64,000 nt of DNA. It comes from a virus. The position numbers and the translations under genes are program-made. Positions 3,213-46,920 of the stretch are shown here, one piece after another (position 1 is the first letter of the stretch; the number at the start of each line of letters is the position of its first letter). Location of the stretch: IMG/VR virus record IMGVR_UViG_3300040770_000357. One strand, given 5' to 3'. Below the pieces are notes generated by a model. That model was not told where the DNA came from. It saw nothing but the letters and a program-made list of their open reading frames with translations, and did not search any database.

Positions 3213-3278
3213 TATAAGAAAAACCAGAGTAAAATTTGGTTTTTCTTTTTTTTTGTCGTAATTTTGGTAAAAAATATT

Positions 3279-3923
3279 ATGAAAGTAAAAGCCCGTGTTC
3301 ATATGTTGGAGACTAAGAAAAGTGACAACGTTTCTGATATTGTATTATCGCAAGATGCCACCAAATTAGCATTTATCAATGTTTTAACAACAGGTGATAC
3401 CCAACCTTGTACAAATCAAGAACTGTATGTTACCGCATACGACCTATATACATTAGGTGATTACCTATTAGACTTTAAGAATAACAAAGTTGTCTTATAT
3501 GACACTATTAATTTTAGTAAAGTTAATGTAGACGACTATAAAAAAATAATTGCAACGACTGACGAAACCATTACTACTGATGGTCAATACTACCTACCAG
3601 ATAGTTTTATTGAAACATATGTTAGTAGATACAATGAGGGTAGACAAATGAATAAAATAAATGTTATTTTAGTAATGACTTGTACTAATTGTGGTCAACA
3701 CTACTGTGATAATTATGGTTGTCGTGGGCATAAAGATAAACTTGAGACACATAGGATTTTCCCAATTAAGGCTGAGTCAAATGAGGATGAATTGTTAGCC
3801 TATGCTTCATATAAAGCAAATAAGTATAGTGTTGATAATGAAGATTTGGTTCGATTAACATTTGCAAAATCTGAATTTGTTAAAGACTACTGGTTTAACA
3901 AATTCAAACAATCTAATGTCTAA
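3279..3923 (+). CDS. Hypothetical phage protein
   Basis: Long ORF after terminator; shares KKIIATTD-like segment with 10005-10745. Confidence 0.65.
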   Translation: MKVKARVHMLETKKSDNVSDIVLSQDATKLAFINVLTTGDTQPCTNQELYVTAYDLYTLGDYLLDFKNNKVVLYDTINFSKVNVDDYKKIIATTDETITTDGQYYLPDSFIETYVSRYNEGRQMNKINVILVMTCTNCGQHYCDNYGCRGHKDKLETHRIFPIKAESNEDELLAYASYKANKYSVDNEDLVRLTFAKSEFVKDYWFNKFKQSNV

Positions 3924-10004: not shown

Positions 10005-10745
10005 ATGAAAAACATATACATATTACCAACAGATAAACCAAGTAGAGTTTATAAACATTTAGGTAGAGAACTTAAATATACCGCAAGATATTTTGAACAA
10101 AAAGGATTTTTATGTGTAAACCAAAATATGTACATCACTTCTGATGAAGAAATTAAAGATGGTTGGGTTTGGCACTTAGGGAGAGGGCATTTACTTAAAG
10201 TAGGGCAGTTTACTGAAATCAATGGAAATAAGGGTTTTAGAGATACTGAATTCATATTGAATGGTATTGAAGTTTTAGTTAAAGACTGTAAAAAAGTTGT
10301 TTTAACAACAGACCAATCATTAGATGGTGTACAAGCTATACCAGATAATTTTTTAGAATGGTTTGTTAAGAATCCAAGTTGTGAGGAAGTTAAAGTTGAA
10401 TATGGGTGTTGTGGACAATGTGATGAAAGATTATGTGAGGTGTTTGATTTAGGTTTAAAACAAGGACTATACAAAATAATCATTCCAAAAGAAGAAACAC
10501 TTGAAGAAGCTATATCTAAAGAATTAGCAACTTTTAAACAAAGTATGGAACCTCATTTAATAAAACGTAATATAAATTTTATCCAAGGAGCAAACTTTGG
10601 TGCTAAATGGCAACAAGAAAGCAGTAAACAAGATTTGAAAGACTTATGGGATTATGTTAATGAAAGGTGTTTAAATCATTTAGACGATGAAGCTCCACAG
10701 TTAGGTACTTTCAACGAATGGTTTAACCAATTTAAAAAAAGATAA
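10005..10745 (+). CDS. Hypothetical phage protein (NIYILPTDKPSR family)
   Basis: ORF in operon; motifs shared with 9202-9693. Confidence 0.7.
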   Translation: MKNIYILPTDKPSRVYKHLGRELKYTARYFEQKGFLCVNQNMYITSDEEIKDGWVWHLGRGHLLKVGQFTEINGNKGFRDTEFILNGIEVLVKDCKKVVLTTDQSLDGVQAIPDNFLEWFVKNPSCEEVKVEYGCCGQCDERLCEVFDLGLKQGLYKIIIPKEETLEEAISKELATFKQSMEPHLIKRNINFIQGANFGAKWQQESSKQDLKDLWDYVNERCLNHLDDEAPQLGTFNEWFNQFKKR

Positions 10746-11036
10746 GTTATGGTGTTAAGGAATATACTTGGGGTTATTGTAATCCTAGCTTGTCTTAGTA
10801 GTTTTATAAGATTCGGTTATTCAATTTATCCATTTGTTATAATTAACCTACAGATAGTTATGTTAATCATTCAAAATAAATATGTTAAGCAATAACAGTG
10901 GGATTAAAAACATTATTTAGTGCAATTTGTATCATATTTGTATTAAAAAGAGTAATATAACGCACTTTAAAAAATAAATTAAAAATAATTGCAAAAAGAC
11001 TTGCTTTATTAAAATAAGTGTAGTATATTTGCAGAA

Positions 11037-11872
11037 GAAATAAAGGAAGTGAAAACTTAATTTAAAATAATAGGGTGCTTATACTCTATAGGATAAACTC
11101 AGCAATGAGGATAAAGCAGAAATGCGTTGGCGATTCCCAATCCACGTAAGCAAATTAAACACGGTTCATGTGTTAAACCTAAGAAACATCTGTTGGAAGG
11201 TTTGTGTGTGAATTATCTACCTTAGTTGAATTCTTTGGGTAGGTTGAGTATGAAAGTACAATAGAAACCCTCGCTGGTGAAGTTTAATAGAAATCGGTGA
11301 ATAACTGTAAAAAGGGAATAAGCTGAAATCATTCTGGATTCTTACGGATAAAGTGAAAACCTAAGTAAGAGAAATGAACATACTGTAAAAGGTATATCGA
11401 GGTGTCGTTGGATAATCTACCCAAAAAGTAGTACGCCATACAATCTGTGAACACATCTTGAATTGAGAGTTTAACGCTATCGGCTGCGTAAGCCAATTTT
11501 TTATTGAAAAAAAAAAGACAGCAAAAGTTTCACAGAACTTGATTTGAAAAATGAGTTATACTGTTGTAATATACAGTTGTGTTAGTAGGCCGCAAGCCAA
11601 ATACATAAAATAAAGTGAGTATTTCTAAGCCAACAGCCAGCCAGCTGCTAACCTCGCAAGGGGGTCGAAAGAAAATAGAGTTTATATAGAGTCGAGTAGT
11701 GATTGCAGAATCGTAAAATCTGTCTCATTGTTAACTATCCTTGGAAACATGGATGTGTGTTATAGGTGAAAACCTTAAAAATGTTAACTCTAATGCTGAA
11801 CACTCAAGCATATAGTAAAATAGGGAGTAGTATGTAAGCTACGGTAGAGGTTGAAGTCCTTGTATTCCCACT
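11037..11872 (+). ncRNA. Large ornate structured RNA, GOLLD-like candidate
   Basis: ~830 nt ORF-free tract after a promoter, many GNRA-capped hairpins, next to tRNA array; family assignment unverified. Confidence 0.65.
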
Positions 11873-11900
11873 AGAAAAAATAAATTAAAAATAAATGTAA

Positions 11901-11950
11901 AAAGACTTGCTTTATTAAAAAAGATGTAGTATATTTGCTAAAGAAATAAA
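11901..11950 (+). promoter_or_regulatory. Promoter of tRNA operon; near-duplicate of promoter at 10994-11043
   Basis: AAAGACTTGCTTTATTAAAA..AG.TGTAGTATATTTGC..AAGAAATAAA in both. Confidence 0.75.
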
Positions 11951-12028
11951 AAAATAAATAAAAATCTGTACTTTTAATAAAAAAGGTATATTTATATTAA
12001 ACGGATAGAATCCACAATAAAAGAAATT

Positions 12029-12130
12029 ATGAAAACAACAACCACATATCAAAAGAAACAGTATACGCAAGGCGGGCAACCGCAAGGCAAGCTGGGTATG
12101 TTAAGTTGTCAAGATTTAACCACGATATAA
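12029..12130 (+). CDS. Putative attenuator leader peptide MKTTTTYQKKQYTQGGQPQGKLGMLSCQDLTTI
   Basis: 33-codon ORF with A-rich initiation context between promoter and terminator; contains antiterminator strand. Confidence 0.7.
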   Translation: MKTTTTYQKKQYTQGGQPQGKLGMLSCQDLTTI

Positions 12131-12159
12131 TGTAGCGTAAAAACCTATATAAAAATCAG

Positions 12160-12195
12160 ACCCAGTTCAGAGTAAAATCTAAACTGGGTTTTTTT
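12160..12195 (+). terminator. Attenuator-type intrinsic terminator upstream of tRNA array
   Basis: ACCCAGTT...AACTGGGT + T run; alternative pairing with AGCTGGGT at 12090-12097. Confidence 0.8.
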
Positions 12196-12213
12196 ATGTT
12201 AAAAAATTAAATT

Positions 12214-12294
12214 GGGGTCCGCTAGAGTCGGAGAGCTAGGGCGGTCTGTAACACCGTTGCGAAAGCTGAATAGGTTCGAATCCTATGGTCCCCA
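12214..12294 (+). tRNA. tRNA-Tyr(GTA), atypical
   Basis: Loop CT-GTA-AC, long variable arm, T arm ATAGG/CCTAT; one T-T acceptor mismatch, short 8-9 linker. Confidence 0.75.
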
Positions 12295-12363
12295 CAGAGA
12301 AGAGACTGTTACTAATTCATAGGACACCAAGGTAAAGTACTGGAAGCGTAGAATTAGAAATCA

Positions 12364-44991: not shown

Positions 44992-46920
44992 ATGAAAGAA
45001 GAAAAAATAAAAATTGGTGATATTGTAGAAGGTAAACTACAATTTAACCAAAGTGGTTCAGCCTACTTGGTAAGCACAGATTTACCAAAAGACATATATT
45101 TGAATAAGCATAACACAAATAAAGCGTTACATTTAGATATAGTAAAAATAAAAGTGATTAGCGGTAATGGTCGTTCAATCGAAGGTGAGGTTACTGAGAT
45201 AGTAACAAGGTTTAAAGATGAATTTGTTGGGTCATTACAAATAACCCCAAAACATGCATTTTTTGTTGCAGATAGTAATAAGATTTCAGTTGATTTTTTC
45301 ATACCATTAGACAAACTGATGGGTGCTACTGATGGTCAGAAAGTTATTGTTAAACTAACTACATGGAAAGACACGGCAAAGAATCCTAACGGTGAAGTCG
45401 TAAAAATACTTGGTGATGCTGGTGAGTATGAAACAGAAATACATGCAATCTTAGAGGAATATGGTTTACCATACGATTTTGAAGAAGAAGTTCTTTTAGA
45501 GTCAGAAGCAATTTCGTCAGAGATTACACAATCTGAGATAGATAAACGTAGAGATATGAGAGGTATCTTGACCTTTACGATTGACCCAGTTGATGCAAAA
45601 GATTTTGATGATGCGCTAAGTGTTGAATGGATTAATGGTGAGTTATTTGTTGGGGTACATATTGCCGATGTATCACATTATCTAGAACAAGACACTGAAT
45701 TAGATAAAGAAGCATATACCAGAGGAACTTCGGTTTACTTAGTTGATAGATGTATCCCTATGCTTCCAGAGAGGCTATCTAATGGATTATGTAGCCTTAG
45801 ACCAATGGAAGACAAGCTATGTTTTTCAGCAGTCTTTAAACTGGATAGAAAAGGTAAAGTATTAGAAGAATGGTTTGGTAAAACTGTCATTAATTCTGAC
45901 CATAGGTTTTCATATGAAGAAGCTCAAAAAATAATTGAGGGTGATTCTAGTTTTATGACAACAAACATTAGGGAACTAAGTTCTGCAATTAGGGAATTAG
46001 ATAAAATTGCGAAACAAATGCGTAAAGAACGTTTGATTGAAGGTTCTATCTCATTTGATAAACAAGAGGTTAAGTTTCAGTTAGATGAAGGTAATAAACC
46101 AGTTGGGGTTATTTTAAAGACATCTAAGGATGCCAATAAATTAATCGAGGAATATATGTTATTAGCTAATAAACATGTTGCTCAATTTGTTAATAGAAAA
46201 GGATTGCCAATGGTAAATCGTTCACACGATAAACCTAATGAAGTTAAACTAGATTCCCTTAAGGAATTTATTAAACAATTTGGATATGTTATCAAGACAG
46301 ATAATCCAATGGAAATCACACGCACACTTAATAAGTTATTGACAGATGTTAAGGGTTCACCAGAATCTAGTATGATTGAAACGTTAGTAATAAGAACTAT
46401 GCAGAAAGCGAATTACTCTACAAAAAATATAGGACATTATGGTTTAGGGTTTAAAGATTACGCTCATTTCACAAGTCCAATTAGGAGATATCCAGATGTA
46501 ATCGTTCATAGGTTATTAGCTACATATTTAAATGAAAAATCTTCACCTAATCTTGGGAAATTAGAAAACAAATGCTTACATTTGTCGGAACGTGAGAAAA
46601 AAGCGCAAAAAGCAGAGAGAGAGTCTATCAAATACATGCAATGTATTTATATGTCTGACCATATTGGTATGGTTTATAAAGGAATTGTAACATCTATTGC
46701 TGATTTTGGAATTTTTGTTGAAATAAAAGAAACTAACTGTGAGGGATTTGTTAGGTTAGCTGAAATAGATGGTGATACGTTCACTTCTGACCCAGCTAAT
46801 TATTGTGTTAAAGGGTTTAATACTGGTATTACTATAAGTCTTGGTGATGAAGTTGTTATTGTGGTTAAATCAGTTGATATTGAAAAGAAAAATATTAATT
46901 TAACATTATTAAAATTATAA
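44992..46920 (+). CDS. rnr: Ribonuclease R
   Basis: TIDPVDAKDFDDA, GTSVYL, AHFTSPIRRYPD, C-terminal S1 domain. Confidence 0.95.
   Translation: MKEEKIKIGDIVEGKLQFNQSGSAYLVSTDLPKDIYLNKHNTNKALHLDIVKIKVISGNGRSIEGEVTEIVTRFKDEFVGSLQITPKHAFFVADSNKISVDFFIPLDKLMGATDGQKVIVKLTTWKDTAKNPNGEVVKILGDAGEYETEIHAILEEYGLPYDFEEEVLLESEAISSEITQSEIDKRRDMRGILTFTIDPVDAKDFDDALSVEWINGELFVGVHIADVSHYLEQDTELDKEAYTRGTSVYLVDRCIPMLPERLSNGLCSLRPMEDKLCFSAVFKLDRKGKVLEEWFGKTVINSDHRFSYEEAQKIIEGDSSFMTTNIRELSSAIRELDKIAKQMRKERLIEGSISFDKQEVKFQLDEGNKPVGVILKTSKDANKLIEEYMLLANKHVAQFVNRKGLPMVNRSHDKPNEVKLDSLKEFIKQFGYVIKTDNPMEITRTLNKLLTDVKGSPESSMIETLVIRTMQKANYSTKNIGHYGLGFKDYAHFTSPIRRYPDVIVHRLLATYLNEKSSPNLGKLENKCLHLSEREKKAQKAERESIKYMQCIYMSDHIGMVYKGIVTSIADFGIFVEIKETNCEGFVRLAEIDGDTFTSDPANYCVKGFNTGITISLGDEVVIVVKSVDIEKKNINLTLLKL

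Follow-up and report, generated by a model that had tools for sequence, protein, structure and literature searches.

The question raised by this locus was which kind of RNA, if any, is encoded directly ahead of the tRNA genes of a viral DNA. The window, i.e. the whole stretch analysed, comprises 64,000 nt (IMG/VR record IMGVR_UViG_3300040770_000357); a sequence-only reading had described a GOLLD-like RNA there and had left room for a new family. GOLLD RNA (RF02032) reportedly goes back to Weinberg et al. 2009 and is, to our knowledge, among the largest bacterial or phage RNAs without a known function. As judged from sequence comparison, 11037–11871 (+) is very probably the gene of a GOLLD-family RNA (about 835 nt), delimited by an RF02032 match, nhmmer matches and covariation. 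The RNA is a divergent new member of the known family, not ROOL and not a new family. The full account, comprising a promoter-driven GOLLD RNA gene, a processed 3′ end and, by analogy, a cage, is considered likely. The novelties are modest: a clade below the Rfam threshold, a Y-shaped 3′ extension, a kept 5′ opening module and a repeat-flanked gene with its own promoter.

Coding potential, hairpins and folding energy

No ORF of at least 60 aa was found in 10896–12028, in agreement with the sequence-only reading; the longest has 55 aa, lies on the minus strand and starts with TTG. Downstream, 11 tRNA genes form an array from 12214, about 340 nt past the RNA, so that the proposed position beside a tRNA array was confirmed. 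GOLLD genes are carried by phages or prophages, as a rule within or next to tRNA clusters, and the relatives described below also occupy such positions on viral contigs. All six GNRA-capped hairpins that had been listed are present on the + strand: AAGU-GAAA-ACUU (11047–11058), CUCA-GCAA-UGAG (11098–11109), GCA-GAAA-UGC (11116–11125), GUAU-GAAA-GUAC (11248–11259), CCUC-GCAA-GGGG (11652–11663) and AGGU-GAAA-ACCU (11764–11775). Those at 11098, 11248, 11652 and 11764 are conserved, and those at 11047 and 11116 are not. The several AGTA motifs were also recovered, as AGUA at 11427–11433, 11694–11699, 11813 and 11826–11832. The folding energy of the 836-nt RNA was no better than that of shuffles on either strand (z +0.09 and −0.11). 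Hairpins and folding energy alone therefore prove nothing; the RNA gains its significance from the match to the covariance model and the covariation seen among its relatives.

Family membership

The Rfam gathering score for GOLLD is 150 bits. When the window was scanned at the curated gathering thresholds, tRNAs alone were reported, and neither GOLLD nor ROOL. With an E-value threshold, 11397–11810 (+) was matched to RF02032 from model position 1 to 416 of 416 with 93.4 bits and E 1.1e-24, the match containing few non-canonical pairs. As this score lies below the cut-off, default annotation overlooks the RNA, which is a divergent rather than a textbook member. For calibration, the canonical GOLLD of Acinetobacter phage Herod (MW316732, 26253–26621) was scored and gave 225 bits. 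RF02032 covers the conserved 3′ half of GOLLD and no more, so a full-length member of 835 nt should be matched from about 360 nt onwards, as was observed. The two-domain layout of GOLLD (about 700–850 nt, in which the 5′ domain is less conserved and the linker varies) was found in the window RNA, at about 835 nt in total.

In env-38 GOLLD, the 5′ region comprises residues 1–420 and the 3′ region residues 421–833 (PMC12286853). Kretsch et al. took cmsearch hits with E<1e-5 as GOLLD (PMC12286853), and by that standard the window RNA is GOLLD. Their supplementary alignment already includes contigs of Flavobacteriia, Flavobacterium and Bacteroides among its GOLLD hits, and it lists the GOLLD of Acinetobacter phage Herod (PMC12286853). 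The ROOL model gave no match in 10700–12300 at E up to 10, and other large-RNA Rfam families gave none at E up to 10. The comparison with the Rfam GOLLD and ROOL models that had been proposed as a check thus came out on the side of GOLLD, and the full-length match bears out the GOLLD-like label. Since the sequence-only reading had itself held that a strong GOLLD hit would make the RNA known rather than new, its alternative of a new family falls away.

Relatives and clades

To collect relatives, IMG/VR and JGI/ENA metagenomes were scanned with sequence patterns, and nhmmer was then applied. Among 50,697 GenBank phage records, neither blastn of the RNA nor megablast of 25 kb of the window gave a match. 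Three clades were distinguished. Clade A contains the window, L123, L101/L166, L154, L173 and the more distant L189, which was the one new lineage obtained when IMG/VR was scanned further for close relatives; the nhmmer matches of L123/L166, L154 and L173 span about 11060 to 11871. L123 and L101/L166 (two loci on one other contig) carry near-identical RNA and come from two viral contigs of 274 kb and 368 kb. Clade B contains L174, L140, L030, L124, L160, L153 and L138, and clade C L122, L161, L170, L136, L152, L121, L158, L162, L150 and L159. Of clade C, L122, L161, L170, L136, L152 and L121 were joined to the clade profile by nhmmer (E 1e-21 to 1e-31). All ten loci of clade C have a complete tRNA inside the linker; their promoters are of the sigma-70 type (TTGAAA-17-TATAAT), and they score 93–107 bits, below the Rfam threshold.

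A full-length RF02032 match was obtained for 13 of the 15 relatives submitted, with 78–107 bits, and for L030 and L154 there was no hit at E up to 0.001. At such scores the whole assemblage is a divergent branch under the Rfam threshold. The sequence-only clade profiles do not detect the Herod GOLLD, to which the clades are linked by the structure-aware model alone. A whole GOLLD clade of large environmental phages is accordingly missed by default annotation.

A loose pattern (AGCAAAAGT..GAAANNTGA) returned mostly chance matches, three of 118 being GOLLD by nhmmer. Thirteen matches of a tighter pattern on genome contigs, mostly 'uncultured Flavobacteriaceae' MAGs, were considered as host evidence and rejected, because they have no Rfam match and different flanks and represent an unrelated AT-rich intergenic element or chance. 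A highly conserved AT-rich intergenic element that happens to fit the 23-base GOLLD pattern was observed in L176–L178, L181–L188, L139, L141, L145 and L169; it is found in many MAGs labelled 'uncultured Flavobacteriaceae' as well as on large contigs from metagenomes, is matched by no Rfam model and has no relation to GOLLD. In L158, 80 nt within the phage tRNA array (3231–3310, minus strand) were matched by the tmRNA model from end to end with 74 bits (gathering score 47); this element may be a minimal or split tmRNA-like RNA.

Covariation

Five sequences were aligned (alignment A4), and an RNAalifold consensus of 181 pairs in 37 helices was derived. Paired cells amounted to 91.4%, as against 36.5–41.3% when the 3′ partners were slid; this percentage is inflated, since the consensus was derived from the same alignment. 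Changes on both sides were counted in 78 of the 181 pairs (shuffle mean 35.9), and the covariation score was 0.463, compared with 0.07–0.10 for slid partners and 0.233 for shuffles; none of 500 shuffles reached the A4 value. The evidence for structure stands nonetheless, by the compensatory counts and the slid controls, and is spread over the 5′ domain (helices 1–13), the 3′ domain (helices 14–34) and the 3′ tail (helices 35–37). Across clades, the MAFFT alignment could not be relied on for the middle of the 5′ domain or for parts of the 3′ domain, and tests on 21 sequences were therefore limited to helices in well-aligned blocks.

The RNA encoded here is thus structured, conserved and non-coding, and its gene heads a phage tRNA array. 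That the locus might instead hold no functional RNA, whether as an AT-rich spacer, as a decayed gene or as a region for small proteins, would agree with the folding z-score near 0 and with the short ORFs of 31–55 aa on both strands, but it is at odds with conservation in six lineages, with 78 compensatory pair changes, with the lack of any reading-frame pattern and with a dedicated conserved promoter. This explanation is already refuted by the covariation and is given practically no probability.

5′ domain and linker

The RNA begins with a variable 5′ leader (11037–11069, +), whose local hairpin AAGU-GAAA-ACUU is not conserved in L123 or L154. The 5′ domain follows at 11070–11396 (+) and comprises helices 1–13 of alignment A4, with many compensatory pairs. 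It starts with an opening module consisting of a hairpin at 11070–11089 and then GAUAAAC, the hairpin with GCAA loop at 11098–11109 and then AUAAAG, a UGG/CCA pairing (11128–11130 with 11137–11139) and a closing helix GGAU/AUCC (11091–11094 with 11140–11143). Over 21 sequences from the three clades, the module was 94% paired (slid control 22–47%), and its individual helices were 81–100% paired in clades A, B and C. The same motif order was found in Herod (L191, about 1125–1165 and 1238): GGGUCGUGUAUAACCC, GAUAAAC, UGC-AAAA-CAG, UAUAAAG and later CCAAUC. The 5′ halves of GOLLD RNAs have been described as variable (PMC12286853, PMC12990946). Further 5′-domain helices lie at 11217–11223/11238–11244, at 11290–11302/11318–11330 (7 of 11 pairs compensatory) and at 11380–11395, together with the GAAA hairpin at 11245–11263, the loop of which (hairpin 11248–11259) is kept in close relatives and is a possible counterpart of the conserved GAAA loop L11a of env-38. 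The middle of the domain covaries within clade A and could not be aligned reliably to clades B and C.

Between the two domains runs a variable linker (11462–11535, +) without a tRNA insert; it contains a 13-nt hairpin GGCU-GCGUA-AGCC (11482–11494), an A10 run (11507–11516) and an invariant AGCAAAAGU (11520–11528). In solved GOLLD members, the linker is disordered and faces the cage interior (PMC12286853, PMC12990946). A kissing contact of linker positions 11482–11486 (GGCUG) with the loop at 11638–11642 was considered on the basis of a 5-nt complement (p about 0.04), and in L154 the linker GUGAC complements its own loop GGUCAC (p about 0.14). The contact was not accepted, because such a complement was found in the window and L154 and in none of 15 other members. 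It was observed that the window loop CAGCCA and the L154 loop GGUCAC both depart from the usual CCGCAA; the linker complement could be a contact or chance.

3′ domain and pseudoknot

The first 3′-domain hairpin (11397–11461, +; Rfam model 1–60, helices 14–16) carries an A-rich terminal loop CCAAAAA at 11421–11427. Its top stem was 99% paired in clades B and C, and CAAAA of the loop is nearly invariant in 21 sequences. Helix A (9 bp) joins 11537–11545 with 11689–11697 (model 139–148 with 289–298); it is kept as 7–10 contiguous pairs in most relatives, with 5 in L160, while its letters vary by lineage (ACUUGAUUU/GAGUCGAGU, ACAUGAUUU/GAAUCAUGU, GCUUAUAGAU/GUCUAUGAGC and ACUCUAUGUU/AACAUAGAGU). 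The core of the domain (11550–11729, +) is closed by helix B, AAUGAG/CUCAUU (11550–11555 with 11724–11729), which crosses helix A and so forms a pseudoknot. Helix B is absent from the nested consensus displayed by cmscan; over 21 sequences it was 96.5% paired and showed two compensatory pairs, and its partners are complementary in the Rfam consensus (GGUGAC/GUCACU) as well as in phage Herod (GGUGCU/AGCACU; L191, about 1575–1585 and 1735–1745).

Within the core, hairpins were placed at 11560–11577, at 11578–11607 (CGCAA loop), at 11634–11647 (loop CAGCCA, 11638–11643), at 11652–11663 (GCAA loop, 11656–11659) and at 11705–11723, and helices at 11610–11616/11679–11685 and 11622–11625/11667–11670. 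The 3′-terminal part of the Rfam model (11730–11810, +; helices 30–34) comprises the helix GUUAAC/GUUAAC (11730–11735 with 11783–11788), two hairpins with GAAA loops (11744–11747 and 11768–11771) and the last family hairpin, GCU-GAACACUCA-AGC (11795–11809). The 3′ half has the complete GOLLD architecture, and the 5′ half opens with a module of canonical GOLLD; the opening module and the pseudoknot are kept across very distant members.

These features also bear on the idea that the RNA belongs to a separate new family of ornate phage RNAs and resembles GOLLD by convergence. The RF02032 score below the gathering threshold, the empty blastn search of GenBank phages and the failure of the nhmmer profiles to reach canonical GOLLD could all be read in that way. 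They are set against a full-length RF02032 match at E 1e-24, about 15 helices in the same order as in GOLLD, two crossing long-range helices that are both retained, with compensatory differences from the Rfam consensus and from phage Herod, a 5′ succession of motifs (GAUAAAC-hairpin-AUAAAG...CCAAUC) that the window and Herod have in common, and the genomic context of GOLLD. Convergence is very improbable and already nearly refuted.

The Y-shaped 3′ extension

Past the end of the Rfam model, the RNA continues for about 60 nt with a clade-specific Y-shaped extension (11811–11871, +). It consists of an outer stem GGGA/UCCC (11823–11826 with 11866–11869), a variable hairpin GUAG...CUAC (11827–11842) and a hairpin GAGG-UUGAAGU-CCUU with a 4-bp stem and a 7-nt loop (11847–11861). 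The extension was found in the window, L123/L166, L154 and L173 only, with a longer form in L189. In A4, helices 35–37 showed compensatory changes in 8 of 12 pairs, and single-sequence folds of the window and of L123 agreed on the three-way junction of the extension. The 3′ end of the RNA reads ...CCCAC, and in the window and L154 ...ACUAG, then an A run; in L123 and L173, a tRNA-like gene starts 4–5 nt after the terminal CCCCAC. The tRNA-like genes that follow GOLLD in L123 (2318–2391), L166 (1226–1299) and L173 (738–811) have an abnormal anticodon loop and were called by ARAGORN as 'tRNA-???' with a two-letter anticodon. The tail 11811–11871 was itself considered as a degenerate tRNA and rejected, since it gave no tRNA-model match (E up to 10) and none by ARAGORN; its sole likeness to a tRNA is the 7-nt loop UUGAAGU on a 4-bp stem, which recalls a T arm.

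Clade A could be a distinct structural variant of GOLLD in Bacteroidota phages, in which the Y module, with its T-loop-like 7-nt loop, and the tRNA-free linker might alter the cage; this proposal is regarded as doubtful. If it holds, the change could concern copy number, cargo, or an outward handle for docking or processing where the RNA meets the tRNA genes, and clade A would provide a natural design for a knock-out in hosts for which genetic tools exist.

Promoter, flanking repeats and predicted transcript ends

The gene is flanked by an 82-nt direct repeat, copy 1 of which (10963–11044, +) is 89% identical to copy 2 (11869–11950, +). The core 20-mer of this promoter cassette occurs within the 64 kb at two sites only, which flank the GOLLD gene. 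In copy 1, TTG at −33 (11001–11003), a 20-nt spacer and TATATTTG at −7 (11024–11031) make up a promoter of the Bacteroidota type; located just upstream of the RNA, it substantiates the earlier claim that the RNA has a promoter of its own. For TTGC-N19-TAnnTTTG, 7 occurrences were counted in the window where 0.35 would be expected, and TTG-20 nt-TAnnTTTG stands at the same distance before the RNA in the window, L123 and L154. Host RNA polymerase would thus transcribe the GOLLD gene from its own Bacteroidota-type promoter, with a predicted start near 11037.

The 3′ end near 11871 would arise by processing rather than by termination. This is suggested by the relatives with a tRNA-like gene 4–5 nt downstream, where RNase P would cut, and by the window, which has no terminator before the next promoter; no terminator-like site was found within 11872–12160. 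Copy 2 of the cassette is the predicted driver of a downstream 33-codon leader, a terminator and the tRNA array. In the region 12029–12200, it was observed that this copy is followed by the 33-codon ORF and by a strong stem-loop with a T run (12163–12196) just before the first tRNA.

Recombination between the 82-nt copies would excise the RNA gene exactly and leave one promoter before the leader and the tRNA array. The flanking promoter repeats could in this way render the GOLLD gene a cleanly excisable module. With a repeat-bracketed gene and a host-type promoter, a deletion test of GOLLD function would be straightforward if a cultivable relative were found.

Phage and host

Among the genes of the window phage are an RNase R-like nuclease, a DNA transfer protein, NAMPT and an adenylosuccinate-synthetase-like enzyme. 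The RNase R-like nuclease (44992–46920) is closest to proteins of uncultured phages of 635 and 642 kb (46–49% identity). A search of four viral contigs with related GOLLDs gave no homologue of the nuclease, so that kinship of the RNA does not by itself show kinship of the phage. L001–L003, which were found via an upstream 264-aa protein, have neither GOLLD nor tRNAs and hence provide no synteny information. The sequence-only reading had spoken of a Bacteroidota jumbo phage. The first half of this label is partly supported by the TTG/TAnnTTTG promoters of the window, L123 and L154, that is, at the level of promoter type, and the assignment is to be taken as a tentative one. For the second half, the partial support comes from the sizes of the viral contigs with the closest RNA relatives (274 kb and 368 kb) and of the phages with the nearest nucleases (635–642 kb).

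Proposed cage and possible function

All GOLLDs examined so far self-assemble without protein (PMC12286853, PMC12990946). A D7 14-mer cage has been solved for env-38 GOLLD (PDB 9MEE; PMC12286853), and 10- and 12-mers for Streptococcus agalactiae GOLLD (9LMF, 9L0R; PMC12990946), in which the 3′ domain mainly gives decamers and the full-length RNA a dodecamer (PMC12990946). In the solved members, 3′ domains build rings and the 5′ domain caps them; the contacts are made by the A-rich loop of the first 3′-domain hairpin, by self-pairing GC/CG loops and by GNRA loops docking on the neighbour (PMC12286853, PMC12990946). Candidate loops of these types, matched by loop type and model position, are present in the window at 11421–11427 (A-rich), 11638–11643 (GC-containing), 11656–11659 (GCAA), 11744–11747 and 11768–11771 (GAAA each). 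L154 and L189 lack an equivalent of the GC-containing loop, and so not every contact is conserved in clade A.

The preferred reading is of a cage-forming RNA whose own promoter, ahead of the tRNA genes, would yield it in large amounts. By analogy with the solved members, its 3′ domains would join side by side into rings, with the 5′ domains capping them, and two half-shells would close into a hollow cage of 10–14 copies held by RNA–RNA contacts only, with the A-rich linker (11462–11535) pointing inward. That the window RNA forms such a multimeric cage appears fairly probable. GOLLD has recently been shown to form RNA-only cages. The window copy adds little in kind.

The RNA could instead be a GOLLD-derived monomer that forms no cage and serves, for instance, as the structured 5′ portion of a long leader–tRNA precursor, i.e. 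as a platform for processing or stability. Such a role would suit the lack of a terminator between RNA and tRNA array, the RNA abutting a tRNA-like gene in relatives, the extra 3′ module of the clade adjoining that junction, scores well under those of canonical members and contact loops some of which vary within the clade. However, the RNA and the tRNA array are served by separate promoters, that of the array lying in the second copy of the 82-nt repeat (89% identical); every 3′-domain helix, the ring-forming part in solved members, has been kept under selection, and every GOLLD tested so far multimerises (PMC12286853, PMC12990946). A monomeric platform is therefore thought unlikely, and the multimeric cage is preferred. 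A role of the RNA tied to tRNA or translation is put forward tentatively, as a possibility that is somewhat improbable; the suggestion comes from the location, from the other translation-related RNAs and genes of the phage and from a pull-down cited in PMC12286853.

Comparison with known systems

The window RNA resembles the canonical and solved GOLLDs in its length of about 800 nt, in its two domains joined by a variable A-rich linker, in the full set of 3′-domain helices, including two crossing long-range helices, in GNRA and A-rich loops at the same places, in the 5′ opening module and in being phage-encoded next to tRNA genes. Unlike them, it scores 93 bits (its clade 78–107) against a threshold of 150, it cannot be linked to a canonical member by sequence profile alone, it has its own Bacteroidota-type promoter, and it carries, downstream of the last family hairpin, the Y-shaped module (about 60 nt), together with a lineage-specific middle of the 5′ domain.

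A tRNA in the GOLLD linker is a known trait, according to PMC12990946, in which Mycolicibacterium tRNA arrays (Morgado et al. 2020) are cited. With the linker-tRNA GOLLDs of clade C, the window RNA shares the clade-level 5′ and 3′ domains and the tRNA-array setting; it differs from them in its linker, which has a 13-nt hairpin and an A10 run and no tRNA, whereas clade C has TTGAAA-17-TATAAT promoters and is without the 3′ extension. ROOL, the rumen-originating ornate large RNA, forms an 8-mer cage (PMC12286853). Like the window RNA, it is a large ornate RNA of phages or prophages near tRNA islands, and RNA-only cages are a feature of ROOL as well; it differs in having another fold with intertwined 5′ and 3′ regions, and the window has no ROOL match at E up to 10.
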